Shown piece after piece: positions 6,637 through 38,941 of a stretch of DNA of 39,505 nucleotides. The position numbers and the translations under genes are program-made. Under the pieces are notes generated by a model. That model ran no database searches. It saw nothing but the letters and a program-made list of their open reading frames with translations, and was not told the DNA's origin. The DNA is from Candidatus Thorarchaeota archaeon (GTDB taxonomy: Archaea; Asgardarchaeota; Thorarchaeia; Thorarchaeales; Thorarchaeaceae): contig JBHLQH010000033.1 in the NCBI GenBank assembly GCA_048884965.1, forward strand, positions 1-39,505, given 5' to 3'. The stretch's first letter is position 1. Each line of letters opens with the position of its first letter.

Positions 6637-7704
6637 TTGGGGAAGATACGAGTAGGCATCTTTGGCGCAACGGGTATGGTTGGCCAACACTTCGTTAGGT
6701 TGCTTCACGACCATCCTGCCTTTGAACTGGTGATGGTGACCGCGTCAGAGAGGTCACGAGGGATCAGATATCTAGATGCGACTGACTGGATGATTGGAAG
6801 CACTATGCCTGAATCGGTTCATGACCTGATACTCCAAGAAACCACCGCGACTGCTCTGCAAATCGAGGAGGTCGATGTAGTGTTCAGTGCGCTTCCCTCA
6901 CAGATCGCTGGTCCTGTGGAGGATGATGCTGCATCCATAGGAGTCCCTGTCTTCTCGAACGCAGGGGCACATAGGATGCGACCTGATGTTCCCATCCTTA
7001 TACCAGAGATAAATTCCCAGCATCTGCAGCTAGTCAGTGAACAGAGATATGCCCCAGGATTCATCGTCACCAATTCGAATTGCTCTACTTCTGGACTCGT
7101 CTTCGGCCTCAAGCCATTGATGGCATTTGGTCTGGAAGAAGTCAATGTCACGACCATGCAAGCGGTTTCCGGTGCTGGGAGGAGAGGTGTGGCGTCCTTG
7201 GACATTCTCGGGAACATCATTCCTCACATCAAGAATGAGGAACAGAAGATGGAAACAGAGCCACAGAAGATACTGGGCTCTCTCGTTGACGGACGTGTGA
7301 GGTCAGCAGATTTCAGAATTACTGCGACTTGTACCCGAGTCCCTGTTGCGAATGGTCATCTCGAAAGTGTTTCTGTGAAGTTGAAGGAGGATATATCCGC
7401 TGAGGATGCGATTAGTGCCTTCTCGGAGTTTGCTGGAGATATCCCATCACTAGGATTGTCAACTGCTCCTATTCGACCAATCACTGTGTTTCTGGAACAC
7501 GACCACCCACAACCCTCAAGAGATCTCTTCACCACAGACGATCCATTAGGGATGAGTATAAAGATAGGACGAGTCAGAAAGAAGGGTGACTCGATTCAGT
7601 TCATATTACTCGTACATAATACGATGAGAGGTGCTGCAGGCGCATCAGTACTGAATGCAGAATACGCCTTTCATACTGGGTACTTGGATGAGGTGATAGC
7701 ATGA
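6637..7704 (+). CDS. asd: Aspartate-semialdehyde dehydrogenase (archaeal/fungal type)
   Basis: GATGMVGQ, NSNCST catalytic Cys, QAVSGAG, CTRVPVANGH, HNTMRGAAG. Confidence 0.95.
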   Translation: MGKIRVGIFGATGMVGQHFVRLLHDHPAFELVMVTASERSRGIRYLDATDWMIGSTMPESVHDLILQETTATALQIEEVDVVFSALPSQIAGPVEDDAASIGVPVFSNAGAHRMRPDVPILIPEINSQHLQLVSEQRYAPGFIVTNSNCSTSGLVFGLKPLMAFGLEEVNVTTMQAVSGAGRRGVASLDILGNIIPHIKNEEQKMETEPQKILGSLVDGRVRSADFRITATCTRVPVANGHLESVSVKLKEDISAEDAISAFSEFAGDIPSLGLSTAPIRPITVFLEHDHPQPSRDLFTTDDPLGMSIKIGRVRKKGDSIQFILLVHNTMRGAAGASVLNAEYAFHTGYLDEVIA

Positions 7705-9074
7705 AGGTGATGAAATTCGGAGGAGGCTGTCTTCGTGATGGTCAAAGCTTCATTAGGATTGCAAAACTGCTTAGGGACGAGCCTTTTGGTCAGACTGTCA
7801 TTGTGGTATCTGCCATCAACGGTGTCACGAATTCCCTTGAACAAGCAACCCTATCTGCCTTGGAGTCTGAAGGTAATATTTCTCGATTCATTGAGGACAT
7901 TCGGGCCCTGCATGAGAACATCATTCAAAGTGCCATTCAAGATCCCAAGACCCAAGAGCACATCATGAAGATCATTGAGTCGAAGATCAGAGCATTAGAA
8001 CGACTCCTCTATGGCATATCCTACACTGGTGAGATAACAGATACTGTCCGGGTCATCGTATTGAGCCAAGGTGAGCGTCTGTCTGCCATAATTCTAGCTG
8101 CAGTACTATCCGAACATGGTAAGAACGCTCGTAGCTTCGAAGCAGACAAGATCGGTATCGTGACCGATACAGTCTGTGAGAACGCCACAGCGAACCTCTC
8201 AATGGTTAGAACCAACCTTCAAGAAAACCTAGTGCCTTTGATTCGACGAGGAATCATTCCTGTCATCACTGGATTCTTTGGCTGTACTGAGGATGGCAAA
8301 ACCTCCTCCTTTGGACGCAATGGATCTGACTATAGCGCTGCAGTGATTGCTCATGCCCTTGAGGCTCGTGAGGTGTACATCTGGAAGGATGTGGATGGAT
8401 TCATGACAGCAGACCCTGGTCTGGTCCCGAGTTCCAAAAGGATAAAGCATCTCTCATATATGGAAGCTGCTGAGCTCTCATATTTCGGAGCAAGGATTCT
8501 GCATCCCCGAACTGTAGAACCCCTCATGGGCACTAATACGAGGATCTACATCAAGAACATACACTCGCCCAAGAATGCAGTGACCCTTATCGAGGAGTCT
8601 GGCCATGAGGAGAAGGACATAGTCAAAAGCGTGACCTATAATGATAAGATTGCGGTACTTAGGATTCATGGAGCTGGTGTCGGGCATAAGCCTGGTATCA
8701 TTGGAGAGATAGGAAAGACCCTTTCTGATGCTCGGATCAACATCTTCTCCGTATTGACATCACAGACTTGTATCAATCTCCTTTTGGACAATAAGGATGC
8801 TGGACGTGGCATTGACGCGCTTAGGCCGCATGTCGGAGGTGTAATAGAACGACTTGAACTACGAAATGATGTAGCCCTCATCGCGGTCGTTGGCCAAGGT
8901 CTTGGGAATAGAGAAGGTCTCGCAGCCCGTGTCTTCTCAGCAGTCGCTCAAAAATCCATCAACGTGGAGATGTTCGCAGCAGGTGCTTCTCATGTCGCGT
9001 ACTATTTCATCGTCGCTCAGAAGGATATGCAAGGTTCTATTGCCGCTGTCCATGATAGCTTCTTTGGAATCTAG
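7701..9074 (+). CDS. lysC: Aspartate kinase with C-terminal ACT domains
   Basis: VMKFGG, VVSA, GERLSA, GRNGSDYSA, DVDGFMTADP, ELSYFGARILHP. ATGA overlap with asd. Confidence 0.92.
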   Translation: MKVMKFGGGCLRDGQSFIRIAKLLRDEPFGQTVIVVSAINGVTNSLEQATLSALESEGNISRFIEDIRALHENIIQSAIQDPKTQEHIMKIIESKIRALERLLYGISYTGEITDTVRVIVLSQGERLSAIILAAVLSEHGKNARSFEADKIGIVTDTVCENATANLSMVRTNLQENLVPLIRRGIIPVITGFFGCTEDGKTSSFGRNGSDYSAAVIAHALEAREVYIWKDVDGFMTADPGLVPSSKRIKHLSYMEAAELSYFGARILHPRTVEPLMGTNTRIYIKNIHSPKNAVTLIEESGHEEKDIVKSVTYNDKIAVLRIHGAGVGHKPGIIGEIGKTLSDARINIFSVLTSQTCINLLLDNKDAGRGIDALRPHVGGVIERLELRNDVALIAVVGQGLGNREGLAARVFSAVAQKSINVEMFAAGASHVAYYFIVAQKDMQGSIAAVHDSFFGI

Positions 9075-24614: not shown

Positions 24615-25217
24615 TCACGATTCGTGCCTTCCTCTCTGTCTGAGTCTAGAGCGTATCAGATAGTGAAGAGGTACTACCAAGGTATCGGGATGGTCATAGT
24701 ATCTGGTCAAAGCGGGTGATCTTTCGAATTTATGCCTGTAAACAATAGCACCCAAGGCAATGAACCCAACTAACACACCCACTACGATTGTTGAGATCGG
24801 CACTTGTCTCATAACTACTCTGATGTGTACTGATTCTGATATCGAATTCGACAGATAGTCTGAACATTCCAAGGTTAGTATGAATGCACCATCTCTTCTG
24901 GGTTTCCACTTGTAGGGTATCTCATAGTTGCCTATTTTCAGTTCTTCATTGCCCACTAGTAGGTTGAGAGAGCTGATACCATGCTCTGATTTGATATCAA
25001 AGCAAATATCCACTGTACCATAGGGTACTGTGTCTCCTTCCTGCGGAGAAAGAAACCTCACGACGATTGGATCTGTTTCGTTATATTCCTCCTGCTGAAT
25101 ATAGAAAGTTGTGATTGGAAGTATCATGTCACGATCAGGTGGACAGCTTGTAGCTGATGGAGTCAGAGATAGGATGCATATGATAATCCCATAGAGAACC
25201 CATCGAATTTCCTTCAT
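24615..25217 (-). CDS. Hypothetical membrane-anchored protein with an Ig-like domain
   Basis: Signal peptide, PIVVRFLSPQEGDTV...PYKW...G.FILTL..D..N pattern, TM helix, cytoplasmic tail. Confidence 0.65.
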   Translation of the reverse strand: MKEIRWVLYGIIICILSLTPSATSCPPDRDMILPITTFYIQQEEYNETDPIVVRFLSPQEGDTVPYGTVDICFDIKSEHGISSLNLLVGNEELKIGNYEIPYKWKPRRDGAFILTLECSDYLSNSISESVHIRVVMRQVPISTIVVGVLVGFIALGAIVYRHKFERSPALTRYYDHPDTLVVPLHYLIRSRLRQRGRHES

Positions 25218-25527: not shown

Positions 25528-26367
25528 TCACTTTTCTTTTCGAAGCATCTTCTGTCCATACACGACAACTAGCACGACTGCTACTATCACAAACAGCACA
25601 AGAGATGCATATGTTGCTACCTGCGTATTGAGGATGGGGAACAACCATAGCGATAGGTTCAGTGAGGTGTGCAGTAAAAGGGTCGCAAGCACGCTACCGT
25701 TTGCGTTATTGTACACCCAAGTGAAGATGATTGTGCTAAAGGTCACTGCGATGAACATCACCCAAATGGGATGCTGGTAGTACATGGACCCAGTCGCGCC
25801 TGCATAGACTAGGAAGAGAGGTAGGTGCCATGCGGACCACAGAAGCCCTAGAATGATGCTCGAAGTGAGTGCACTGAATCGTTCCTGTAGACGCGGAAGG
25901 GCATAACCTCGCCAACCAAACTCTTCCTGTAACGGTCCTGCCGTCAAGAGGATGATGATGAACGAGATTGGGACGACGAAGACAAGCTCCGCTGTCAGTG
26001 CTGGGAAGGTGAAGTCCACTGCTATCATCCCGATTACTGCAGATACCACCACAATGATTGGGAATAGGAAGAGTACTGGCAAGAGCCAGATCTTTGAGAA
26101 CTTGATGTTGATACCACTCTTCAAGAGATCCTTGATCGCCTGCAGCTTTCCGGCTCTATAGCTCATGATAAGGGCAGCAAGGAGAGGTCCAAAGGCCGCA
26201 GGATTGAAGGGGCTCATGAAAAAGTCTGTTATTGGAGATGCCGGCAGGAATCCAAGGCTCTCCAAGATTATAGGAGCCCAGAATATCCATGAGATCACAT
26301 AGGTGAGGATGAAGAATATCCAGATGTCTGTAGCATGTTCTTTCTGTGTTGACTCTTTTACTGCCAT
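25528..26367 (-). CDS. CPBP-family (CAAX/Abi) intramembrane glutamic/metalloprotease
   Basis: EEFGWRGY, WSAWHLP, LLHTSLN and multiple TM helices. ATG 26367 follows AGGAG. Confidence 0.92.
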   Translation of the reverse strand: MAVKESTQKEHATDIWIFFILTYVISWIFWAPIILESLGFLPASPITDFFMSPFNPAAFGPLLAALIMSYRAGKLQAIKDLLKSGINIKFSKIWLLPVLFLFPIIVVVSAVIGMIAVDFTFPALTAELVFVVPISFIIILLTAGPLQEEFGWRGYALPRLQERFSALTSSIILGLLWSAWHLPLFLVYAGATGSMYYQHPIWVMFIAVTFSTIIFTWVYNNANGSVLATLLLHTSLNLSLWLFPILNTQVATYASLVLFVIVAVVLVVVYGQKMLRKEK

Positions 26368-26477
26368 GGATAGCACTCCTTGGCGAAATCAAGTCGTCGC
26401 TGCTAGAGGTCCTAATAAGACTAGCGCGAGCTCTCAGAAGACCTAGGTCTAATAGGCTTGGGAGCTATCTTCACCTG

Positions 26478-29400
26478 CTATTCTCGCTTGTAGACTCGCA
26501 TCTTGAGGAAGGAATAGATGATCATCAACAGGATGACACTCAACAGGGCTACTGGCGATACAACCGTGATCCAGTGCTCCTGCGGGTCCCAGTCGATGCC
26601 ATCTGGGATACCATCTCCATCGGTGTCATCAGAGTTGGGTAGCATGCAGTACTCGACCTCATAGGCATCTGACCAGCCGTCTCCGTCAGTGTCCGCGGTA
26701 AAGGGCGAGAGGTTGTTCAGCACCTCAAAGAGGTCGCTCAACGAATCACCGTCTGTGTCAGGAGATAGAAGGTTGAGGCCCATCTCGTACTCGAAGCCGT
26801 CTTCCAAACCGTCAAGATCAGTGTCCGCGCTCAGAGGATTGCTGAAGATCACGTACACTTCCTGATAGTCGTTTAAACCGTCCCCATCAGTGTCGGCCGA
26901 TGTAGGATTGGTTCCGAGCTGTGCTTCTGTACCGTCTGAGATTAAGTCCCCATCGGTATCGTTGGAGAGAAGGCTTGAGCCCCATGTGTACTCATCATAG
27001 TCCGATGCTCCATCTCCATCGGTATCATCGGAAGTAGGATTCGTTCCAGCATTGATCTCAAAGTCATCACTAAGTCCATCCAGATCCGAGTCTCTGAGAT
27101 AGGGTGAGGTCCCGAGGGCGACCTCATCATAGTCATTGATAGTGTCACCATCCATGTCCTCATGCAGGGTGACTGTAAGAGTAAAGTTCGTTGCTCCACC
27201 ACCAATGTTCGTGACATTGAAGTGGTATGCACCAAAATCTTGAACAAGATACTTGAGGACCGCGGTACCATCACTCTCGGTTCTTTGATAGACGACTTCC
27301 CCAGTTTCTGAGTTCACGATACTGACCTGTAAGGTAGTCGCATTATCCCAGGTCACAGTACCATTCAAGAATCCTTTGAGCGAGGCTGTGAGTCGCATTT
27401 CCTCTTGAGAGGTTATATTGAGCCAGCCATTCAGATATCTCTGTGGCACCTCGCCAGATCCTAGCAGTCCCATGTAGCTGACAATGGAAGCAGTAGTTGA
27501 AGCTACCTCGGCAGCCTTCACAAGGGAGAAGTCAGGGTTGTCCCAAGTATCATCTTCTGTATTGGATTGCGGGTCTGGAAGATATCCCTGAGTGACGTAG
27601 AGAGCTGGGCGTCCCGCTTGCCAAAATTCGTAGGCACATGATCTTTGGGCTATCGAAAGGTCTGAAACCTGCTGGAAGAAGCCGTTACCATACTGAGAAG
27701 ATATCTGGATCATCATATCCGGAATCCAGCCTGCATCATGATAGTTGCTTGTTGAAGAGTACGTTCGAATATTCACTTTGTAGCCATAGAGATAGCCCGT
27801 GCGCTGGAACATCAATCTATCGTAGGAGATGGTCGTAAAGGATTGGACTCCCTGGGCTACAATCCAATCTACAAAGGCACCTCCTCCTAGGTCATAGTCT
27901 TCATCCAAGTGTACGCCATTAAGCAGGACATAGTAGACATCGTAGGCAAGGTCATAGTCGTGCAGAATACGAGCGACCTCTAGAACTACTGCTACAGTGA
28001 CTGCTGCATCATTTGCTCCTGGCGTGTACTCAGAGTCGATAATTCCTGTGATGACTAGGGCTGGTCGTGGAGCTGGTGCAGTACCTTGCTTGATAGCAAT
28101 GAGATGTTCAAAGTCGGTTTCCTGAGCGAAGGTGAGCTCATCATTGGTGTTGTTCTGAAGCACCTCGTTGGCCCATTCCCACGCATCCGTCAGATTCTGA
28201 TTCGCACCATCATCTGTATTCCATATCCTGTTGGGATACGTTTCCGAGAGGTACTTGGTATAATTACCGATGTTATCAATGGATGTTTCCTCCCAGATAG
28301 TGAGAAAGAGGTTCGTTGCGTTGAAGTATGTGGTTGCTGAAAGAACAGGGCTCTCGATGCTTGTTCCAATAGAATGTGACGCGATCGTCCCTGTCATAGT
28401 AACGGATGATCCGATGAAAAGTGAGAGCACAATGAGTGACAGTCCCAGCTTAAACCCTGTGCCTTTCATACCTTTAGCGTGACTCCGAAGCCCATTAAAT
28501 GCGTTGTTCTTAGCGTAGCTAGGAATCACTACCTTCTCGCCACCCTTGATATATGCGCGGCGTTTAGAGAATAGGATACCAAGGATTGCCAGAGTAAATG
28601 CAATGAGTATCACCGGCGGTATTAGCATGATCCAGTGCTCTCGAGGGGCCCAATCCTGTCCGTCAGGAATGCCGTCTCGGTCCGTATCTGCATCAAAGGG
28701 CATAAGGCAGTGCTCTACTTCGTAGGCATCAGAGAGCCCATCAAGATCCGTATCTGCGGATAGAGGGTTCAGAGCGTTGAGCACTTCGAACAGATCACTC
28801 AATCCATCTTGATCCGAGTCCGGCGAGAGGGCATTCGTGCCAATAAGCCACTCTTGGTAGTCATCGATACCGTCTCGATCAGTGTCGTCCAATCTAGGAT
28901 CCGTTCCAAAGTCTAGCTCGAAGTCATCAGTCAAACCTTCTCCGTCAGTGTCATTTGAAGACGGATCATAACCGTGGTCGATCTCATATCCATCGAGAAG
29001 TGTGTCTCCGTCAGAATCCTGTACCAAGGGATTGCTACCGTAGATGATCTCGATACCATCGATTGCACCATCAGCGTCAGAATCAGCAAGCCGCGGGTTG
29101 GTTCCGAACACCTGTTCGTCAGGATCTGACAACAAATCAGAGTCTGTATCTGTCGAGAGGCTGTCTGTTCCGAAGAGGTATTCCTCATAGTCATCCAGGT
29201 TGTCCCAATCCAAGTCTTGGAACTGCGCATAGTTGTAGAGGATAGAAATGGACTCATTCCCATAGTTGGTGAACCTGATTGAGTATTCGCCTCTTGTAGG
29301 ATTCAAGCAACTCATATTGATAGCCTGATCAGATTCATTCCGGGAAAGAATCGTGGCTCCAGTGGGTGTCCGGATCTCAGCACGGACAGAGAAGTTCTTG

Positions 29401-30551
29401 TTCCAAGAAAGAGAAACATTGACTATGGAGAGACCTGTGATAGGCAGGGGAACGCTGGCCTGTGAGTACGCCCCAACGCCAATGGAACGTGTCAGCTCAG
29501 GAGCCTCACCATATCCTAGTCTACCAAGTGTAGCGACAATGGATGATGCAAGTCCGACCGCCTCTGCTATCTTTGCATAGTCATATGCCCAGACATCCCA
29601 TTCATCAGCGTAGTTATAGCTGTAGGGATCGCCATAGAACTGACCCAAGCTGATGCTCGGGATGCCATTCCGCCACCCTTCATAGCCGCCGGTGGAGTAC
29701 CAGAAGGGCAAGCTCGAGCTTTGGTTCGCTACTGTCAGGATATTCGTACCTGAGATTTCTGAGATTGTTCGAGCCATCCGTATGATATAGGCGACCGGGT
29801 CATATGGAGTCGCGAGTATGTTCCAGTCGAGTCGGATGTTCTCCCCGTAGGTCGTCACCGGATCAGAATAGAGAAGTTGATTGAACCAGATGATGCCTGC
29901 TGGCTTACGTCCCTGATTCTCAAGGTCACCAATGAGATTCTGAAGACCTTGATTACCATTCTCGAAATTGAAGTTTCCTGCTGAGATTGTGTTTGTCAGG
30001 ACAAAGTAAATGTCATTCGTCAAGTCATATTGATTGAGTATCCGTGCCGCTTCAATGACAGCTGCGACTGATGAGCCATAGGTATTTGCTCCAGGTCCAG
30101 TGGTATAGCGACTTGCAATGGTGCCAACGATAAGGATCGGAGCCAAATTATCTTCAGTGCCTTCTTTAATTGCAACCAGGTTCAAGTATTCTGTCAAGAA
30201 ATGGAATTCCAGTTCATTCCCTGTCGCTGTCTTAATGGTGTCGTTGACCCATTCCCATGCTCCTAGAAGCTCTAACGATCCATTCTTGTCCAAGGGGAAC
30301 CAGACTCGTTGCCCATAGTTCTGTGAGAGAGTACGAACGATACTCAAGGCGTTGCTCTCGCTAACCTTGGAATAGATATCATCCCAGAGGCTTTCAAGTG
30401 AGAAGGTCTCACTTGGAGCCAGTTGAACAATTGGATCGATAACAAGGTCGCTATGGGTTTCACTGTTTGTCATTGTTCCAGCAAATGGTATGCAAGAGAT
30501 AGCTAGAACGAATATCAATGCCACACTTACGTAGAACCGGCTCCAATTCAT
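26478..30551 (-). CDS. Tandem two-module surface protein: 2x [signal/TM, degenerate M28 peptidase fold, beta domain, 9 DxDxDG Ca-binding (TSP3-like) repeats, TM]
   Basis: PGANTYGSSVAAVIEAARIL and PGANDAAVTVAVVLEVARIL. About 22-aa repeats of type DTDGDGLSD..E...GTNP. The second module begins at ATG 28469. Confidence 0.8.
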   Translation of the reverse strand: MNWSRFYVSVALIFVLAISCIPFAGTMTNSETHSDLVIDPIVQLAPSETFSLESLWDDIYSKVSESNALSIVRTLSQNYGQRVWFPLDKNGSLELLGAWEWVNDTIKTATGNELEFHFLTEYLNLVAIKEGTEDNLAPILIVGTIASRYTTGPGANTYGSSVAAVIEAARILNQYDLTNDIYFVLTNTISAGNFNFENGNQGLQNLIGDLENQGRKPAGIIWFNQLLYSDPVTTYGENIRLDWNILATPYDPVAYIIRMARTISEISGTNILTVANQSSSLPFWYSTGGYEGWRNGIPSISLGQFYGDPYSYNYADEWDVWAYDYAKIAEAVGLASSIVATLGRLGYGEAPELTRSIGVGAYSQASVPLPITGLSIVNVSLSWNKNFSVRAEIRTPTGATILSRNESDQAINMSCLNPTRGEYSIRFTNYGNESISILYNYAQFQDLDWDNLDDYEEYLFGTDSLSTDTDSDLLSDPDEQVFGTNPRLADSDADGAIDGIEIIYGSNPLVQDSDGDTLLDGYEIDHGYDPSSNDTDGEGLTDDFELDFGTDPRLDDTDRDGIDDYQEWLIGTNALSPDSDQDGLSDLFEVLNALNPLSADTDLDGLSDAYEVEHCLMPFDADTDRDGIPDGQDWAPREHWIMLIPPVILIAFTLAILGILFSKRRAYIKGGEKVVIPSYAKNNAFNGLRSHAKGMKGTGFKLGLSLIVLSLFIGSSVTMTGTIASHSIGTSIESPVLSATTYFNATNLFLTIWEETSIDNIGNYTKYLSETYPNRIWNTDDGANQNLTDAWEWANEVLQNNTNDELTFAQETDFEHLIAIKQGTAPAPRPALVITGIIDSEYTPGANDAAVTVAVVLEVARILHDYDLAYDVYYVLLNGVHLDEDYDLGGGAFVDWIVAQGVQSFTTISYDRLMFQRTGYLYGYKVNIRTYSSTSNYHDAGWIPDMMIQISSQYGNGFFQQVSDLSIAQRSCAYEFWQAGRPALYVTQGYLPDPQSNTEDDTWDNPDFSLVKAAEVASTTASIVSYMGLLGSGEVPQRYLNGWLNITSQEEMRLTASLKGFLNGTVTWDNATTLQVSIVNSETGEVVYQRTESDGTAVLKYLVQDFGAYHFNVTNIGGGATNFTLTVTLHEDMDGDTINDYDEVALGTSPYLRDSDLDGLSDDFEINAGTNPTSDDTDGDGASDYDEYTWGSSLLSNDTDGDLISDGTEAQLGTNPTSADTDGDGLNDYQEVYVIFSNPLSADTDLDGLEDGFEYEMGLNLLSPDTDGDSLSDLFEVLNNLSPFTADTDGDGWSDAYEVEYCMLPNSDDTDGDGIPDGIDWDPQEHWITVVSPVALLSVILLMIIYSFLKMRVYKRE
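26600..27160 (-). repeat. Nine Asp-rich DxDxDG protein repeats, module 2 (approximate bounds)
   Basis: From DMDGDTIND to DTDGDGIPD in the translation. Confidence 0.8.
28660..29217 (-). repeat. Nine Asp-rich DxDxDG protein repeats, module 1 (approximate bounds)
   Basis: From DLDWDNLDD to DTDRDGIPD in the translation. Confidence 0.8.
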
Positions 30552-30596: not shown

Positions 30597-31103
30597 CTAT
30601 GAAATTCCATTGATACTGAAATAGTCGATCGCTTCCTCCTTTAGGATAGCGACAAGCCTTTGGATGTCAGAGTTAGGAATGATGGGCACTCCATCCTTCG
30701 AACTTCCAAGATCTACTCCTTCCCAGACTACATATGCTTTCACGTTTGAGGGGCTGAACTGTTCCTCCGCGATTTCTTCGCCTATGCACCAGAATCGTGG
30801 CACCTCAAGTTCCTTGAATCCTTCAAGAAGCAAGTAGTCCACATCAATGATTTTTGCAAACTTTGAGATTGCCGTTTTTCCCCTCGCTCTCATTGTGGCA
30901 GTAGATGGTCCGATCAGCAGAGTGGGGTTGGCGCCTGCTTGTGCATGTCTCCAAGTATCCGTTCCCTCCGGAGCGATGATATCCTCTTTAGTGCTCTTGA
31001 TACTTGCGACGCTCTTTCCTTCTTCCTTCAGCTTGCTAATGAGCTGTTCCAAAAGGAAGGTCTTTCCTGAGAATGAGAATCCTGAAACCGCGAAAACCTG
31101 CAT
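30597..31103 (-). CDS. mobB: Molybdopterin-guanine dinucleotide biosynthesis protein B
   Basis: SGFSFSGKT, IKST, EGTDTWRHAQAGA, LLEGFK. Confidence 0.85.
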   Translation of the reverse strand: MQVFAVSGFSFSGKTFLLEQLISKLKEEGKSVASIKSTKEDIIAPEGTDTWRHAQAGANPTLLIGPSTATMRARGKTAISKFAKIIDVDYLLLEGFKELEVPRFWCIGEEIAEEQFSPSNVKAYVVWEGVDLGSSKDGVPIIPNSDIQRLVAILKEEAIDYFSINGIS

Positions 31104-31231
31104 CGTTTACTCACTTCTGTTGTCAGTTTGAAGGTTTTTACTACTTTCGATAGTCTTACATGCGATTTGGATTCGGCTTTGAGCTAGTTGCTCCTGTAGT
31201 AACCTTAAAAATTGGCTATGACGGGAACACA

Positions 31232-32029
31232 ATGATGGAGACACCGCCCTTGGACACCGATAAAGAAGCTGCAGTAGTCTGCCAAGAAGTATTCAGAGAA
31301 TTTCAAGATGGAACAAGAGTCATCAAGGTTCTTCGAGGCACAGATCTTACTGTGAACAGAGGTGAGTTCGTAGCAATCGTAGGAGCCTCAGGTTCAGGGA
31401 AGACAACGCTCTTGAATCTCATTGGAGGGCTTGACAAGCCTACCAGCGGAACGATTCTCGTCGATGGAATTGATATCACTGGTCTCAATGATGACCAGAT
31501 GTCCGAAATGCGACGCCATAAGATTGGCGTTCTGTTCCAAGACCAACACCTTCTACCTATCTTTACTGCCATTGAGAACGTACAGGTTCCCATGCTGCTC
31601 GATGAAGTGCGGGCTGAGAAACGCCATACGAAGTCCATGGAACTCCTAGCTGCAGTAGGTGTCGACCATCGAGCACATCACATGCCTCACGAACTCTCTG
31701 GTGGTATGAGGTCTCGAGTTGCACTTGCAAGGGCTCTTGCCAATGACCCGATCGTGCTACTTTGTGATGAGCCTACAGGAGATTTGGACCACAAGACCGG
31801 CGCTGAAGTCATCCGTTTGATGCGTGATCTCGCCAAGAAGCAAAACCGCGCTGTCATTACTGTTACGCACGACCCTGAAACTGCGAAGATGGCTGATAGG
31901 ATTCTACTCCTTAGGGATGGAAAGCTTGTTGACGAGCTCATTGGAGAGTTCTTCAGAGCAAGTGGCGTTGAGGTAGAATCTAGACATAAACGAGGGTCCG
32001 AATCGGGTGACAGTTCCATCACGGGGTGA
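31232..32029 (+). CDS. ABC transporter ATP-binding protein (LolD/MacB family)
   Basis: GASGSGKT, LSGG, LLCDEPTGDLD, VTHD. Start moved to ATG 31232, downstream of the TATA-like CCTTAAAA. Confidence 0.92.
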   Translation: MMETPPLDTDKEAAVVCQEVFREFQDGTRVIKVLRGTDLTVNRGEFVAIVGASGSGKTTLLNLIGGLDKPTSGTILVDGIDITGLNDDQMSEMRRHKIGVLFQDQHLLPIFTAIENVQVPMLLDEVRAEKRHTKSMELLAAVGVDHRAHHMPHELSGGMRSRVALARALANDPIVLLCDEPTGDLDHKTGAEVIRLMRDLAKKQNRAVITVTHDPETAKMADRILLLRDGKLVDELIGEFFRASGVEVESRHKRGSESGDSSITG

Positions 32030-34922
32030 TGTAGTGGCTCGAAAAGAGAATCATGTTAAGATGCTACCTGGAAACAAGCTCTATGCATTCTCATATGCAC
32101 TCAGTTCTATGAGGGCATATCCATTTAGAGCATTGAGCCTTGCGCTAACTTTGAGTCTGGGAGTATCCCTCATTGGTGGGGTTCTAATATGGGCTGATAC
32201 TGGGGTTCAGGTAAGTGTCGATGATTACTTTGATAATAATGCGTTCCAGATGCTTCTGCAGAATCCAGCTGGCCTTACAGATTCTGTCGATGCGGCTGAA
32301 GCCTATATGCTGAATAGCCCCCTCATAGAGTCATCCTATCGGGTCAATTCTACAGTCGGACTTGTGTACGGAACACAACTTCCTGATGAAACGGTCTATG
32401 GATTGAATGAGCCTCTATATACAGAAGGGATGAAGGATTGTGAGGTCATCTTTGTCAATAATGCTCTCTTGAACATAATCGAACGACAATTCAAAATAGA
32501 GGGTCGACTATCTCTTCAACCTGGCGAAACTGTGGTCTCATCTCAGTTCGTGAACTACGTATACGAGGTCTTTGGCATCACTCTAACAATCAATTCGACT
32601 ATTGATGTTGAGGTTCTTACTCGAAGACCAACAGGGCTGACTGGTGAGATAGGCGATCTAGGGAGAAACACACTCGATGGACTGACAATAGTTGGCATCT
32701 ATGAAATCGAAGGATACAACTCCATTATCGAAAGAGGGTTTCCCTCCATCATGAGAAAGAACTACGACTTCTTACATTACTACACCCCAGTGCTAGGCAT
32801 CCGCGATAGCATCATGGTCCTATCCAATTCCATAGTCGCTCCGAGCATATCACAAGTGGGTTTCTTTGGTGCAAATTCCTTCATCCGAGCATCTAGCGAG
32901 AACCTGATCGCATCTGGGGTCAACGAAATGGATGAGAAACTCCTCACATTGAAGGCACGTGTAGATGAGGCCTACGAGGTGACCGTCGATGGCCTCGAGG
33001 AAATAAACTATCTACAAGGACTCGTTGACACATACACCGAAACGATGCCTCTGGCACTACTGAATCTCCCCATATTCATTCTTGCACTATTCCTATCAGT
33101 ATTTGCTGCTGACACATTCATGGCGACTCGTAACATCGAAGTGAGTGCGCTTCGTTCCAAGGGTGCCAGCTCAAGCCAAGTCTATGGAATTTTCTTCTCA
33201 GAATCAATCATCATTGCCTTGTTCAGCATTGCAACAGGCATTGGACTAAGCATACTATTCTCAGCTCTGATACCTTCCGCTGTCGGCTTCATGGTCTTTG
33301 ATTTCGAGATGTATCAATTCTTCCTTAACGCCACTGTTCTCAAACCGGAAACCATTTTCATCTCAACCCTACTTTGTATCGTTCCTCCCCTTCTTTTCAT
33401 CTTGGGCTCGGCTAGAAAGGCTGCCATGACTGAGATTGGAATGCAGTTGATGGAGGTTTCAGAACCCCTCTCTGAAGGTAGTGAGGCATACGGGTTCACC
33501 ATTGGTGCATCTGTGGTTCTCCTTGCAATGGTTATCGGCTCAGTGATGTTCCTTCCGAGCAATCCAATGATGCTATTGCTGGAATTAGGGCTTGGTACCG
33601 CCGCATGGTTCTTCATGGCCTATAATGGTTCCCGAATATCTCGCGTTGGATTTGCGAGAGTCACTCGGAAGCTGTCCTTTGTTCTCGGTGAGAAGAACCT
33701 TATAGCCTCTGGAAATCTACGAATGAGGAAGGGTCGTATCGTTCCCCTCATGGTCGTTCTTGCACTAACACTATCTTCAACGATAGCCTTTACTGTGCAG
33801 GCTGAGAGCTTCCAAGTTGACCTACAGAAGGAACTGGATTACGCAATAGGTTCAGATTTACGTGTTACTTGCACCGCTCGTCCCTTCAGCTTCAATGACA
33901 CCTTGGAGGAGTATCCTGGAGTTAACAGAGCTACTCCCGTTATGAGAACTTGGGGTGGTATTGGGGTAGAACGGATTAGTATGATTGGGATAGAAGCGAT
34001 AGAATACTCTCTCATAGCCCACTTTGATGAATCAAGCTTTCCAAATGAAGATTCAAACTTCCTCCTGTCCCGTCTCGCGACCATACCAAATGGTATCATC
34101 CTAAGTCAATATCATGCCGATCGATGGAACAAGTCTATTGGCGACAATATCAATCTTGAAGTTGGAGGGCAGCTTTCAGCTTCATGGGCCACTTTCACAT
34201 TAGTTGGCATCGTCCATAGCGCACCCGGATTTGGATACGCGAACGCTGAGGACATTCCGTACTCACGACTTGGACCTGCATTTGGATATCAAGCTGGTCT
34301 ATCTGGGTTTGCTCTAGTGAATATCGATTTCCTATCCGCGCAGACTTCCATTATTACAGCAAATCTATTCTTCGCAGACTTAGTATGTGTCACTGACCAA
34401 GAGCTTGTATTGCGAGCTCTTCAAGATCTAACTGGTGTTAGTGCAACAACTCCTGAATCATATGACCTTGAGAGCTACTCCTTCGGAACAGCCCTTTTCC
34501 TGAGCACAGTAGAAGGTCTCTTCTCAATTGGCTTTGCCATGTCCCTTCTTCTGAGTATGTTCGCACTCACACTCTTTCTAGGCTCCATCGTTCGAGAGCG
34601 GAAGCGTGACTATGCGATCCTACGTGCAGTTGGAGGCTCAAAGAATCAGATCATTCGTGTAGTGCTCTCTGAGTTCACCGGTATCGTTCTCGCTTCATTG
34701 ACACTAAGCCTCGTGCTTGGGACATTGTTCGGTTATGTGATGAGTACGGTGATTTTCTCAATGAGTCCCTTTGCTCGGACCCTTTCAGCCCTGATCACAT
34801 TTCCAATTGGCTTTCTAACAGCTGTGTTACTACTAGAGATATTTGCAATGATTGCTGGTGCGTATCTCCCTGCAAGAGAGGCATCAAAGACAGACCCTGC
34901 GATAGTACTACGAAACCTGTGA
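32007..34922 (+). CDS. FtsX/MacB-like ABC permease (duplicated architecture)
   Basis: ALRSKGAS and RKRDYAILRAVGGS motifs, two large ectodomains, ends PAREASKTDPAIVLRNL. Confidence 0.88.
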   Translation: MTVPSRGDVVARKENHVKMLPGNKLYAFSYALSSMRAYPFRALSLALTLSLGVSLIGGVLIWADTGVQVSVDDYFDNNAFQMLLQNPAGLTDSVDAAEAYMLNSPLIESSYRVNSTVGLVYGTQLPDETVYGLNEPLYTEGMKDCEVIFVNNALLNIIERQFKIEGRLSLQPGETVVSSQFVNYVYEVFGITLTINSTIDVEVLTRRPTGLTGEIGDLGRNTLDGLTIVGIYEIEGYNSIIERGFPSIMRKNYDFLHYYTPVLGIRDSIMVLSNSIVAPSISQVGFFGANSFIRASSENLIASGVNEMDEKLLTLKARVDEAYEVTVDGLEEINYLQGLVDTYTETMPLALLNLPIFILALFLSVFAADTFMATRNIEVSALRSKGASSSQVYGIFFSESIIIALFSIATGIGLSILFSALIPSAVGFMVFDFEMYQFFLNATVLKPETIFISTLLCIVPPLLFILGSARKAAMTEIGMQLMEVSEPLSEGSEAYGFTIGASVVLLAMVIGSVMFLPSNPMMLLLELGLGTAAWFFMAYNGSRISRVGFARVTRKLSFVLGEKNLIASGNLRMRKGRIVPLMVVLALTLSSTIAFTVQAESFQVDLQKELDYAIGSDLRVTCTARPFSFNDTLEEYPGVNRATPVMRTWGGIGVERISMIGIEAIEYSLIAHFDESSFPNEDSNFLLSRLATIPNGIILSQYHADRWNKSIGDNINLEVGGQLSASWATFTLVGIVHSAPGFGYANAEDIPYSRLGPAFGYQAGLSGFALVNIDFLSAQTSIITANLFFADLVCVTDQELVLRALQDLTGVSATTPESYDLESYSFGTALFLSTVEGLFSIGFAMSLLLSMFALTLFLGSIVRERKRDYAILRAVGGSKNQIIRVVLSEFTGIVLASLTLSLVLGTLFGYVMSTVIFSMSPFARTLSALITFPIGFLTAVLLLEIFAMIAGAYLPAREASKTDPAIVLRNL

Positions 34923-34931
34923 GGAACAAAG

Positions 34932-37838
34932 ATGGCAAAGAAGAATCAGAATCAACTCAAAGGGAGCTCGTTATGGGCTCTTACATATGCAGTGACCTCG
35001 CTTAGAAACTACCCTATTCGAAATATGGGTATCGCCCTTGTTCTCGCTGTGGGTATTGCCCTTCCTACGACAATATTCGTTTGGGCAGATACCGGAACTC
35101 AGATGGTGGTCCATGATTACTTTGATGAAAGCACCTACCAGTTGTCACTCTCTCTCAAGCCCTCCGCGTTGTATGATTGGCGCCAGACTCAGGAGCTAAT
35201 TGACACAGCTGAAGCGCACCCCTATGTTGATTTCCTGCATCGAGTGGTATCAACGGTGGGGATACTCCAAAATGACACTCTTCCTGAGTGGAATTCGTAT
35301 GACATCTACGGCTTCAATTATCCTCTAGGTATAAAGGACATGCGAACTATTTTCGTCGATAATGAGTTTCTGGGCAATTGGTCCCGAGATTTCACATATG
35401 AAGGCGACTTTCATCTTGAAGCTGGACAGATTCTAGTTTCCCAAGGCTTTATTGACTACACCCTAGAGCTTCATGGAATCGAACTCCAGATTGGTGACGA
35501 GATTGATTTCGATATTATTGCCCATGAACAGCGATACACGGGTCGTAATTTAATCGATAATCTCTATGTCCTGCCATATGAGAACTTCACAATTGCAGGA
35601 ATCTACGAGATTGGTCCCAACGCGAATATGTTCGCTGAAGCCTTTCCCTCAATTTCTAGGAAGAATTGGGACCCTATGCAGCTATCCAACGATCTTGTCC
35701 TTGGTATTCGTGACTCGATTATGATCTTGAAAAGCGATATCGGTGAGGATAATGTCGCTGAGATCGCGGAATGGAGCTACTGGAGCCCATCCCTTCTGAT
35801 TCGCACCTCTGAAGCCAATCTTATTGCTGCAGGTGCGTCGAATATAGCTGATAATCTAGTTACTTTCAAATCGCAGTTCGAGGAAACCTATCCTACGTAC
35901 AACATTGATGGACTTTCGGAGATATGGCAACTCGAAGCAAAGATCAATACCTATCTCCAAAGTCAGATCCTGACGGTAGTGGCATTTCCTGTCCTCATAA
36001 TGAGCCTGATGCTGACTGTCTATACTTCAGAAACTTCTGTTTCTCGGAGAAAAGGTGAGATTAGCGCACTCCGCTCCAAAGGAGCTTCCTTCAATCAAGT
36101 CTTTGCTACTTTCATGTGGGAATCATTGGTACTCAGTATGATCGGACTTGGGGTGGGAATCCTCGTTTCCTTCATGCTAGCTCCATTAGTAGGTTCGACA
36201 ACAAGTCTATTCATCTTTGATTTTGGCTTATTCAACAAGTACATGATGAATATCTCCATTCCAATTTTGTCTATCATCATTGCAGCTGCGATTGCCATGT
36301 ACCTTCCCGCTGCCTATCTACTCCATGTTGCTCGAAGAATCGATGTGACAGAGGTCGGTCAGCCAATGACGGAAACTGCAGAGGAAGGCGCTGAGATGGG
36401 AGGTATCCGGCGCTATGGACTTGGTCTTGGGGTGGTGCTTTCGTCTCTAATTCTCTTGCCGACATTGGTAAATCCAACTGGGACTACTGCAGTAGTTGAG
36501 ATTCTAATCGCTACAGTGATGCTATTCGTTGCATCCTATCTTGGTTCTCGAACTATGCGATTAGTGACTGCAAAGCTCTCTAGTGAAACAAACTTTCTCT
36601 TAGGAGAGAAGGCCTTGTATCTAAGTCAGAGCCTTCGGAAGAGAAAGGGCCAGTTCATACCCTTGTTGGTGATTCTTACTCTTACCCTTACAACAACAAC
36701 GATGATGCTTGTTCAGACTGCAAGCTTTGAAGCCACGATGTATAGTGAGCTTGGGTACTCGATAGGTGCTGACATGCGTGTTGAATGTGATCCTAAGGCC
36801 TTTGACTTCAACGAGTCTCTGCTTCAATATCCTGGAGTCATTGATGCGACCCCGGTCATCGAAACTTGGGGACAGGTTTCAGGAGATAGATTCTTCCTCG
36901 AGGGAGTGGATGCCCTGAAATATGCTCATATAGGAGCCTTCTCAGTTGACAGTTTCTATGGGAATGATTCCCTTTCTGTCTTAACCGAGTTGAGCAATTA
37001 TCCGAATGGAATTGTGATTAGCAAATTCTACTCTACTCTTTGGAACAAGACCATTGGGGACAGCCTCTTGATCTACCTTGGAGGTCTGAATGGTACCCGA
37101 ATCGTTGCATTCAGGGTTGTTGGAATCGCCTTGAGCGCCCCTGGATTCGGTGTTGCTTCAACAGACGACCTTGCAGGAGCATCCTTTGCATCTCAATTTG
37201 GATTCCAAGTCGGACTAGGCGGCTTTGCATTGGTCAATCTCGATTTCCTATCCTATGTATCAGGGATTCAGTATTCTGATCTATTCTTGGTAGATACGAC
37301 ATGCTTCACAGATATGGTGCCAATAATCAACGTTCTGGAGGAAGATAAGAACACTCACGTGTATACCTTGGAAACCTTTGATGTGAACAGTCAATCCGCA
37401 TCTATTAGGCTGTTCCTTTCCGGTATTCAAGGATTGACCACCATCTCCTACTTGCTATGTGCCGCAATGGGCCTCATGGCCATCGCCCTCTTCTTAGGGT
37501 CTGCAGTGCTTGAGCGTAGGTCTGAGTACGCCGTATTTCGTGCACTTGGTGGAACACAGCGTCAAGTGATATCCATGGTCTTTGGAGAGTTCGCTGGCTC
37601 AGTTATAGCTGCGATCTCTATCAGTGTAATCCTGGGCTTTGTCTTCGGGTTTGCGATGAGTATCATGACTTTTGGCATCTCGCCATTCTCCCCGGTCCTT
37701 CCAGAGATACTCGCATATCCCTTCTTGATGATGCTCGTTACCATAGCAGCTGAGAGTGCAGTGATGATCGCATCCTGCTATCTCCCAGCAAGACGCGCAG
37801 GCTCTGTTGATCCAGCAACTGCGCTCAGAAACCTGTGA
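34932..37838 (+). CDS. FtsX/MacB-like ABC permease, paralog of the upstream gene
   Basis: RRKGEISALRSKGAS, RRSEYAVFRALGG, ends PARRAGSVDPATALRNL. Confidence 0.88.
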   Translation: MAKKNQNQLKGSSLWALTYAVTSLRNYPIRNMGIALVLAVGIALPTTIFVWADTGTQMVVHDYFDESTYQLSLSLKPSALYDWRQTQELIDTAEAHPYVDFLHRVVSTVGILQNDTLPEWNSYDIYGFNYPLGIKDMRTIFVDNEFLGNWSRDFTYEGDFHLEAGQILVSQGFIDYTLELHGIELQIGDEIDFDIIAHEQRYTGRNLIDNLYVLPYENFTIAGIYEIGPNANMFAEAFPSISRKNWDPMQLSNDLVLGIRDSIMILKSDIGEDNVAEIAEWSYWSPSLLIRTSEANLIAAGASNIADNLVTFKSQFEETYPTYNIDGLSEIWQLEAKINTYLQSQILTVVAFPVLIMSLMLTVYTSETSVSRRKGEISALRSKGASFNQVFATFMWESLVLSMIGLGVGILVSFMLAPLVGSTTSLFIFDFGLFNKYMMNISIPILSIIIAAAIAMYLPAAYLLHVARRIDVTEVGQPMTETAEEGAEMGGIRRYGLGLGVVLSSLILLPTLVNPTGTTAVVEILIATVMLFVASYLGSRTMRLVTAKLSSETNFLLGEKALYLSQSLRKRKGQFIPLLVILTLTLTTTTMMLVQTASFEATMYSELGYSIGADMRVECDPKAFDFNESLLQYPGVIDATPVIETWGQVSGDRFFLEGVDALKYAHIGAFSVDSFYGNDSLSVLTELSNYPNGIVISKFYSTLWNKTIGDSLLIYLGGLNGTRIVAFRVVGIALSAPGFGVASTDDLAGASFASQFGFQVGLGGFALVNLDFLSYVSGIQYSDLFLVDTTCFTDMVPIINVLEEDKNTHVYTLETFDVNSQSASIRLFLSGIQGLTTISYLLCAAMGLMAIALFLGSAVLERRSEYAVFRALGGTQRQVISMVFGEFAGSVIAAISISVILGFVFGFAMSIMTFGISPFSPVLPEILAYPFLMMLVTIAAESAVMIASCYLPARRAGSVDPATALRNL

Positions 37839-37915
37839 GGTGCGCCTAGTGAAAACGATATTGACCTATGCGCAGCTCAATACTCTTATTTGCGACATGA
37901 ACAGTTTGGAGGTTA

Positions 37916-38941
37916 GTGACTAAAATGGTCAGCGCTGAAGATTCTCTGGATTTGTATGGTGCATATCCAGATGACGTTGTAGTTAGCGTCGAGAATGTGT
38001 ACAAGATATTCAAGACCAATGAGCTTGAGGTAGTGGCTCTCAGCGGGGTATCAATGCAGATTCTTGAAGGAAAGATCATGTGCGTTGTCGGCCCCAGTGG
38101 TTCTGGAAAGACAACCCTTACGAACATCATTGGTGGTATCACAAAAGCGACCGTTGGGAAGGTGTACTGGGCGAATCTACGTTCAGACATCACAAAGCTT
38201 AGTGAACGTGTGCTGACCGAAGCAAGACGCAGCTTCATCGGATTCATCTTCCAAGTGAACAATCTCTTGCCTCACCTGAATGCGTGGCAGAATGTGGAAC
38301 TTGCAGCTCGAATCGCTGGAGTACCAAAGAAGGTCCGACAAGATCGTGTGGACAGACTCATCAAACTGGTCGGTCTTGAGGAACGGAAACGGAACAAGGC
38401 AACTACCCTCTCTGGTGGTGAGCGTTCCCGAGTCGCTATTGCTAGCTCACTCGTGAACCTAATTGATACTGAGGGAAAGGGACTCGTGCTTTGTGACGAA
38501 CCTACTGGTGACCTCGACCCAGAGACTGCACAGAGGATCCTCGAGCTCTTCAAGGAGCTCAATGAATCCTTGGGCACCTCATTCTTCATCGTTACTCACA
38601 GTCAACAAGTTGCATCTATGGCAGATGTCACTGTGGAGATTCGCGATGGTATCGTTTCTGGATTCCACCAGACTGGTATCGACCTGGATGAGCTTGGAGG
38701 AACTCGTGTTGTCAAGCTTGACAACAACTACAGACTTCCAATGCCTGTCGATCTACTTGAGAAGGCTGGGAACCCAAGCGAGTTCAGGATCTCTTATGAG
38801 AATGACCGCTTCATCCTCGTTCCACAGCTTGGTGGAGTAGTCGATGAGATGCGTGAGCGAAAGGTTCGCACCTGTCGTGTCTGCGGTGCTGAGATTGCTC
38901 AGGGCAAATTCATATGCGCGAATTGTGGTAGCACAGTATAG
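37916..38941 (+). CDS. ABC ATP-binding protein (LolD/MacB family) with C-terminal AbrB-like and zinc-ribbon domains
   Basis: GPSGSGKT, LSGGE, LCDEPTGDLD. Tail VVKLDNNYRLPMP... and CRVC...CANC. Confidence 0.9.
   Translation: MTKMVSAEDSLDLYGAYPDDVVVSVENVYKIFKTNELEVVALSGVSMQILEGKIMCVVGPSGSGKTTLTNIIGGITKATVGKVYWANLRSDITKLSERVLTEARRSFIGFIFQVNNLLPHLNAWQNVELAARIAGVPKKVRQDRVDRLIKLVGLEERKRNKATTLSGGERSRVAIASSLVNLIDTEGKGLVLCDEPTGDLDPETAQRILELFKELNESLGTSFFIVTHSQQVASMADVTVEIRDGIVSGFHQTGIDLDELGGTRVVKLDNNYRLPMPVDLLEKAGNPSEFRISYENDRFILVPQLGGVVDEMRERKVRTCRVCGAEIAQGKFICANCGSTV

Follow-up and report, generated by a model that had tools for sequence, protein, structure and literature searches.

The DNA analysed here (hereafter the window) is a stretch of 39,505 nucleotides, contig JBHLQH010000033.1, from a Candidatus Thorarchaeota archaeon, an assignment that the names given to its homologs and a nearby archaeal primase gene also indicate; the host genome, coded G000, was assembled from a metagenome and comprises 99 contigs, with 95.7% completeness and 7.2% contamination. 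The locus of interest lies on the reverse strand and consists of a long open reading frame (ORF), P0001, followed by a gene for a CPBP intramembrane protease, P0002. P0001 combines two modules in frame, M1 and M2, which are separate genes in most relatives. The predicted plan of each module comprises an N-terminal signal-anchor, a head (E1 or E2) resembling the catalytic domain of the M28 aminopeptidase AAP, a beta-sandwich, a stalk of approximately nine TSP3 repeats, a C-terminal transmembrane (TM) helix and a short basic tail. The evidence presented below favours, with moderate confidence, a surface-displayed pair of non-catalytic pseudo-aminopeptidases that is specific to one Thorarchaeota family and would serve in binding. 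The features of the locus are listed in Table 1.

Table 1. Features of the P0001 locus and the genes around it, with positions in the window, strand and the basis of each assignment.
Feature	Position	Strand	Basis or remark
P0001, in-frame M1-M2 pseudo-M28 fusion, 1357 aa, four TM helices	26478..30551	-	ORF, Pfam and hydropathy
TM1/signal-anchor of module 1, residues 3-28	30468..30545	-	Hydropathy scan
Head 1 (E1), residues 29-445, M28 fold and beta-sandwich	29217..30467	-	Model, structure matches, catalytic columns
Stalk 1, TSP3-type Ca-binding repeats, period 22, residues 446-630	28662..29216	-	PF18884, pattern search
TM2, C-terminal anchor of module 1, residues 638-664	28560..28640	-	Hydropathy scan
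Cytoplasmic linker of ~37 aa, former M1 stop read through	28449..28559	-	Junction comparison
TM3, former signal-anchor of module 2, residues 702-724	28380..28448	-	Hydropathy scan
Head 2 (E2), residues ~725-1131, M28 fold and beta-sandwich	27159..28379	-	Model, structure matches, catalytic columns
Stalk 2, nine TSP3-type repeats, residues 1132-1317	26601..27158	-	Pfam, pattern search
TM4, residues 1326-1354, then short basic tail	26490..26576	-	Hydropathy scan
P0002, CPBP (Rce1-like) intramembrane protease, 282 aa, intact motifs, insertion gene	25528..26376	-	PF02517, motifs
Single-pass membrane protein, 200 aa, second insertion gene	24615..25217	-	Signal peptide, TM, basic tail, weak Big_7
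MobB-like P-loop gene, directly upstream of the pair and co-oriented	30597..31103	-	Conserved in block, also where the pair is absent
ABC ATPase, two FtsX-domain permeases of ~970 aa, second ABC ATPase	31160-38941	+	Cluster divergent from MobB

By homology and fold P0001 belongs to the M28 peptidases, and it is also a TSP3 repeat protein. Peptidase_M28 (PF04389) matched with 43 bits against a cut-off of 21.3, and TSP3_bac (PF18884) with E = 1.5e-20; a pattern search located 17 DxDxDxxxD motifs with a period of 22, arranged in two blocks. In the Pfam scan of P0001 at E <= 0.1, the matches were confined to TSP3_bac, Peptidase_M28, EMP24_GP25L and CarboxypepD_reg, and neither Nicastrin nor Aph-1 appeared. 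An earlier note on this DNA had described ectodomains that end in Ca-binding repeats and a TM helix, and had quoted substituted motifs as evidence that both M28-like domains lack their metal and catalytic residues. The profile match, pattern search and hydropathy scan bore out the first description, and the motifs on which the second rested were found in place: GTIAS (residue 143), GANT (154) and NTIS (187) in module 1, and GIIDS (836), GAND (845) and NGVH (878) in module 2. Their register was established through three alignments, namely a phmmer (HMMER) alignment to Bacillus YwaD/BSAP (6hc6), an alignment of the ortholog profile to 2ek8 and 6hc6, and a MAFFT alignment with three active paralogs from the same genome. 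Given in the order module 1/module 2, the H-x-D motif reads (T/I)-x-(A/D), GAxD reads GANT/GAND and EE reads I-S/V-H; the Asp of NxDM is replaced by Asn in module 1 and kept in module 2, while the His of SDH is Tyr in both.

The loss of catalytic residues extended across the family. The catalytic columns, for which we assume the AAP numbering H97, D99, D117, E151, E152, D179 and H256, were counted over 55 heads, i.e., 31 of M2 type (the window and 30 other genomes) and 24 of M1 type (the window and 23 other genomes). E1 of L070 and E2 of L072 had been dropped for partial coverage, and the E1 set does not include L059 and L074, where only truncated E1 fragments exist; A4 and A5 comprise the window and the 23 genomes in which both heads are full-length. 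The first His ligand (H97) was found in none of the 31 M2-type and none of the 24 M1-type heads. The general base (E151) was never Glu, and Asp occupied its column once in 55 heads. The last His ligand (H256) was replaced by Tyr in 20/31 M2-type and 16/24 M1-type heads, His being seen in 1/55. Asp was present in the D99 column of 29/31 M2-type heads and in the D117 column of 26/31, and in neither column of any of the 24 M1-type heads; at D179, Asp or Glu was found in 27/31 M2-type heads and Asp in 4/24 of M1 type. Glu at E152, another ligand position, was absent from all M1-type heads. Since there was no His in the H97 column and no Glu in the E151 column across 55 heads, these losses are not attributable to chance, and peptide hydrolysis by the M28 mechanism is ruled out because both His ligands and both Glu residues are gone. 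Judged by these columns, both heads are predicted to be pseudo-peptidases throughout the family, with M1 more eroded than M2; module 2 in the window retains three acidic residues (equivalent to D99, D117 and D179) and a His at the E152 position, and module 1 has no catalytic residue left.

The fold itself is well preserved. Models built from a 55-row alignment had a pLDDT of 92.3 and pTM of 0.90 for E2, and 90.0 and 0.89 for E1, with an eight-strand beta-sandwich at residues ~313–409 of each head model. The best Foldseek matches to E2 were AAP (2anp/1amp, E = 3e-16 to 1e-15), Legionella LapA/LapB, Streptomyces SGAP and Aspergillus LapA; glutaminyl cyclases came next, and the transferrin receptor appeared from rank 40. 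When the Foldseek matches were aligned with VIA-align, AAP (3b35/1amp) gave Z scores of 31.1–31.3 at an rmsd of 2.5 over 266 residues, 2ek8 and 6hc6 gave 30.9, and transferrin receptor 1 (TfR1) gave 27.9. E1 was compared with 48,161 representative chains without Foldseek; its matches were 2ek8 (Z = 30.7), 1rtq (29.9), 6zeq and 5gne (both 29.7) and TfR1 (26.5), followed by GCPII (22.8) and the GPI transamidase chain 7w72_A (19.6), while the entry at rank 50 had a Z score of 18.2. Profile searches of the PDB likewise returned active M28 enzymes as the best matches (2ek8, E = 7.5e-7), and no nicastrin or nicalin chain was found in these searches at E <= 10. Nicastrin and nicalin were also absent among the best 50 structure entries listed, where active aminopeptidases headed the lists, although a family outside those entries is not excluded thereby.

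Among the nearest known systems, two groups lie outside the genome itself. The first contains the secreted M28 leucyl aminopeptidases: AAP of Aeromonas/Vibrio proteolyticus (1amp, 1rtq), Legionella LapA/LapB (6esl, 5gne), Bacillus BSAP/YwaD (6hc6), the Aneurinibacillus aminopeptidase (2ek8) and Aspergillus LapA (6zeq). The heads share with these the fold of the whole catalytic domain (Z = 30–31, rmsd ~2.5, 255–271 residues aligned); GAND and its surrounding motifs are still recognisable, and no PA-domain insert was seen (266 residues aligned to the 291 of AAP). Unlike these enzymes, the heads lack both His ligands, the catalytic Glu and the Glu ligand, and they are mounted on a beta-sandwich, TSP3 stalk and TM anchor and conserved as a pair. 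The second group is eukaryotic. Pseudo-peptidases are well known as binding modules in eukaryotes, where TfR1, nicastrin, nicalin and GPAA1 (of the GPI transamidase) combine an inactive M28 fold with a single-pass anchor and a use in binding. The listed structural matches from this group were poorer than those to active AAP-type enzymes (TfR1, Z = 26.5–27.9; 7w72_A, Z = 19.6), there was no profile match at E <= 10, and the heads possess neither a PA domain nor a helical dimerisation domain; moreover, they arose within one Thorarchaeota family from active paralogs.

The tandem arrangement of M1 and M2 is conserved. Genes of the window were mapped onto the orthologous loci of 31 further genomes belonging to its family, one locus from each; separate M1 and M2 genes, in that order, were present in 24, the two were fused in 2, and 5 had M2 only (L067, L069 and L071, all of genus g15, together with L072, and L063, where the contig ends at M2). 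The distance from the M1 stop to the M2 start was between -10 and +20 nt in 18/24 loci, a 4-nt overlap being commonest; M1 and M2 are ordinarily separate genes coupled in translation. Within the genus the gene is fused in G000, G016 and G019, unfused in G015 and G018, and present as fragments in G017 and G020. Comparison of unfused (G015, G018, G076) and fused (G016, G019) junctions showed that the unfused M1 ends in ...KRRxYxRG(G/A) followed by a stop, and that the fused forms continue through a homologous linker (...YAKNNAFN...) into the Met of M2; the ancestral M2 start is Met 695 of P0001 (nt 28469). A similar linker-like stretch exists in G018, in the M2 frame upstream of the M2 start. 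In a quick tree of both heads G000 paired with G015, and G018 with G016 and G019, so that the fused state requires at least two events.

The origin of the pair can be approached through its paralogs. Three active stalked M28 paralogs are encoded in the genome (C1:138082-139956, C1:185365-187428 and C1:26318-27823). They resemble M1 and M2 in having a signal-anchor, an M28 head, TSP3 repeats and a C-terminal TM helix, and the two longer ones also have the beta-sandwich; they differ in keeping HxD, GA(N/D)D, EE, D and SDH, in being single genes and in forming a separate clade. In a quick IQ-TREE phylogeny, E1 and E2 formed one clade (SH-aLRT 100) apart from the active paralogs, with E1 on a long branch. 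This suggests that catalytic activity was lost before the duplication that gave rise to M1 and M2, because in both of them Tyr has taken the place of the last His and HxD and EE are gone. A second dead tandem pair was found at C5:80469-82430 and 82502-84463 (L100:7470-11464), encoding two proteins of 653 aa. It has the same layout as M1 and M2 and has also lost HxD, EE and H, but in the quick tree it falls, on long branches, with the active paralogs and not with M1/M2, and its neighbourhood is different (ferredoxin/CCG, FAD-binding, malic enzyme and three AhpC genes); an independent loss of activity is suggested for this pair.

The distribution of the M1/M2 family is narrow. When a sample of 301 genomes of the phylum was searched at E <= 1e-5, matches occurred in 66/70 genomes of family f1, which held all of the strong ones; 12/44 genomes from four other families had weak matches only (best E = 3e-21), and the 186 genomes of the 25 remaining families had none at this threshold. 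A profile search of 1.84 billion representative proteins returned 27 at E <= 1e-30, a number that rose to 93 at E <= 1e-10, with a two-module protein of 1351 aa at the top. By sequence similarity, then, close relatives appear to be limited to one Thorarchaeota family. A literature search by title and abstract found nothing on this family of dead M28 pairs in Thorarchaeota or Asgard archaea.

Pseudo-peptidase surface proteins are already known as a kind, of which the present pair is a variant. Its heads would descend from active, stalked M28 aminopeptidases that the lineage itself encodes. Reading through the former M1 stop joins M1 and M2 in this genome into a single chain with four TM helices, in which both heads would stand outside the cell and the loop of ~37 aa in the cytoplasm; we infer the outward orientation of the heads from the consistent topology of the fused chain. 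The TSP3 stalks would act as Ca-stiffened spacers that hold the heads away from the membrane, and the two heads, presumably forming a heteromer of M1 and M2, would act jointly as a non-catalytic binding unit, either receptor or adhesin. That both dead heads work together is argued from the natural gene fusion. M2 is the likelier ligand-binding head, having kept three acidic residues in its pocket, with M1 as its more degenerate partner. If so, the reuse of a pseudo-peptidase as a binding module, known in eukaryotes, would have been taken up independently inside one Asgard family, and the active ancestors that persist in the same genome would offer a clean system for establishing what a dead M28 head binds.

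Some observations weigh against this interpretation. Four loci, those of g15 and L072, have M2 without M1, which is thus not obligatory. The three Asp and the His that stand at the former metal positions of M2 may represent a residual single-metal or cation site. Finally, the 101-nt spacer between P0001 and the CPBP gene contains no oligo-T run, and co-transcription in this strain is therefore possible. A more ambitious scheme would make the pair a convergent Asgard counterpart of the eukaryotic pseudo-M28 receptors, in which the residual acidic pocket of M2, on the cell surface, captures a cation-bridged ligand or free N-termini, M1 is an obligate scaffold and the newly acquired CPBP protease, co-transcribed with the single-chain form, acts with it in this strain, for instance by cutting the fused precursor or a substrate that has been captured; this is considered very improbable, and if true it would describe a young, independently assembled module of receptor and intramembrane protease.

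Rather than acting alone, as a binding pair, M1 and M2 might work with the MacB/FtsX-type ABC system encoded at 31160-38941, coupling ATP-driven movement to an extracellular task. Dead-peptidase adaptors are known to act with FtsEX, EnvC providing the analogy. In each of the 31 loci in which that flank is present, ABC1, FtsX1 and FtsX2 stand on the far side of MobB relative to the pair, and each of the two FtsX proteins (~970 aa) has an FtsX domain. However, this adjacency weighs little, given that synteny extends over the 20-kb block as a whole, PriL, OGG and DUF763 included: the conserved order is DUF763, AlkD, thioredoxin-like, methyltransferase, PriL, OGG, (MBL), M2, M1 and MobB, continuing divergently with ABC1, FtsX1, FtsX2 and ABC2. 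The ABC/FtsX cluster is present across the entire family, even in genera that lack the M1/M2 pair. For genera g11 and g12, MobB directly adjoins OGG and the pair is absent in 3/4 loci examined, the fourth being rearranged; since the block exists there without the pair, neither MobB nor ABC/FtsX depends on it. The dead pair on C5, furthermore, has no ABC/FtsX neighbour. A functional link with the ABC system is accordingly considered improbable.

It is also very unlikely that the heads are still enzymes, with alternative residues rebuilding the metal site (Asp, Asp, Asp, His and Tyr in M2), perhaps in a mononuclear form like that of glutaminyl cyclases. In its favour, M2 keeps the three Asp, His occupies the E152 position in 14/31 orthologs, and glutaminyl cyclases match the head well in structure (Z = 27–29). 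Yet that same column, in the position of the Glu ligand, is variable among M2-type heads (His in 14, Arg in 9 and other residues in 8, including Asn in 3 and Tyr in 2), which argues against a rebuilt site, an outcome that the earlier note had named as one that would undo its reading. The missing general base and His ligands, as well as the complete erosion of M1, tell against it further.

There is still less to recommend the view that the ORF of 1357 aa is an assembly or frameshift artefact and that the organism truly has two genes. The genome is a metagenome assembly with some contamination, as described above, and two genes are the rule in its relatives. The same fusion, with a homologous linker, is nonetheless found in two other genomes of the genus, and the 1351-aa representative that headed the protein library search contains two matched stretches. 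In addition, the region 28150-28850 was recovered without indels from three sequencing runs, in two of them on contigs of 36 kb and 6.4 kb and in the third on two shorter contigs, with one or two base differences and at depths of ~14, 10 and 7; all three runs belong to one study and one may be the source of the window itself. The fused frame is real in these data, and an artefact is scarcely credible.

The remaining question concerns P0002, which the earlier note had recognised as an intact CPBP protease next to and co-oriented with P0001, and had linked with it in a nicastrin/APH-1-like pairing. The identification stands: PF02517 matched with 52.6 bits against a cut-off of 22.4, and EEFGWR, WSAWH and HTSLN are readable, which we take to be the CPBP motifs EExxxR, FxxxH and HxxxN/D. 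P0002 is thus a CPBP/Rce1-like protein, although with 95.4 bits against a cut-off of 425 it does not belong to the MmRce1 equivalog (NF041656). Its Pfam scan at E <= 0.1 produced Rce1-like and MpPF26 only, with no match to the APH-1 family.

The position of P0002 beside the pair is not conserved. None of the 31 orthologous loci has a CPBP gene there, and no ORF anywhere in these loci matches either P0002 or the neighbouring gene of 200 aa at E <= 1e-3. In 29/31 loci the gene that comes next after M2 is OGG or MBL, at a distance of <=360 nt in 28 and 1024 nt in L057, where the ORFs within the gap include no CPBP. The exceptions, identified by eye, are G015 (aspartate-semialdehyde dehydrogenase and an aspartokinase-like gene) and G019 (a TnpB-like gene). 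Together, P0002 and the 200-aa gene constitute an insertion of ~1.9 kb between MBL and M2 that was seen only in this genome. The 200-aa protein has a weak Ig-like match to Big_7 (E = 0.0076), and neither the 31 syntenic loci nor the remainder of the genome yielded a homolog. The closest relatives of P0002 are found in other places, namely in G009 (C71, 59% identity), in G082 on another contig than the pair, and at distances of 257 kb (G025), 22 kb (G008) and 8 kb (G005) from the pair; no relative with >30% identity was found in other genomes of the genus, and the genome contains 15 PF02517 matches in total. The CPBP neighbour is incidental and not a conserved partner.

A presenilin-like gene shows no conserved link with the pair either. 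A polytopic ORF of 292 aa with a GVGD stretch (C76:6709-7587, reverse strand; L082:1480-2358) gave a sub-threshold match to PF01080 (E = 1.3e-5) and is located on another contig; a search of the genome (95.7% complete) for the archaeal SPP family (PF06550) yielded nothing at E <= 0.01. Orthologs of this ORF occur in 73/87 genomes of the class, including those of pair-less genera (26/28 in g11, 7/17 in g12 and 1/1 in g17), and they are far from the pair wherever both are on one contig.

These results bear on the proposal that makes the dead M28 protein a substrate receptor in the manner of nicastrin, docking through its TM helices onto the CPBP protease, in a system possibly ancestral to parts of gamma-secretase. 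Like nicastrin, the protein carries an inactive M28 head and has the type I membrane orientation, and the host is an Asgard archaeon. The two genes are adjacent and co-oriented, their spacer has no obvious terminator, and the CPBP motifs are intact. A background claim of the earlier note, that APH-1 is related to CPBP proteins, is also in print, in a passage of PMC6588880 that cites Pei et al. (2011). Nevertheless, the partnership fails because the CPBP adjacency is not conserved, which the note had itself named as grounds for refutation, and the nearest CPBP relatives are unlinked. The comparison of ectodomains and the co-occurrence with presenilin, which the note had put forward as checks, also went against it, both heads being closest, among the matches listed, to active bacterial and fungal M28 aminopeptidases and the presenilin-like gene being present in genera without the pair. 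Neither the second dead pair on C5 nor the active paralogs have an adjacent CPBP gene, and the pair is confined to one family that also holds active paralogs. There was neither a sequence match that would place the heads with nicastrin or nicalin, at E <= 0.1 in Pfam or E <= 10 in the PDB profile searches, nor a conserved link of the pair with APH-1/CPBP and presenilin. The CPBP neighbour is an accident of this genome, and as a nicastrin ancestor the family is both too narrow and too AAP-like; the proposal merits hardly any credence, and the locus has no bearing on the origin of gamma-secretase. What the earlier note had offered as a fallback, an archaeal family of pseudo-peptidase receptors or adhesins, is supported to the extent that sequence and fold allow.

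Several minor observations were made in passing. Among 25 ORFs of the genome with at least three TSP3 motifs, the motif DWxPxEHW is restricted to M1/M2; where the C-terminus is hydrophobic, the ORF usually closes with a TM helix and basic tail. A sorting signal, in the manner of a myxosortase-like tag for CPBP substrates, was considered for these termini and rejected, as most of them comprise a plain TM helix and basic tail and no common motif was seen before the helix. A TATA-like sequence, 'taaatatat', is situated ~25 nt upstream of the 200-aa gene. In G019, a TnpB/OrfB-like ORF of 705 aa with a C-terminal zinc-ribbon (L054:898-3015, forward strand) lies directly downstream of the fused gene and replaces MBL/OGG. 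Genes for aspartate-semialdehyde dehydrogenase and aspartokinase are found at 6637-9074 of the window (forward strand), 17 kb from the pair; in the congener G015 (L051:10109-12618) these two genes are directly downstream of M2, indicating a rearrangement or deletion there. Lastly, the window encodes a Ras/Arf-family small GTPase of 217 aa at 1536-2189 on the forward strand (PF00071, E = 1.7e-11), a eukaryote-like gene typical of Asgard archaea.

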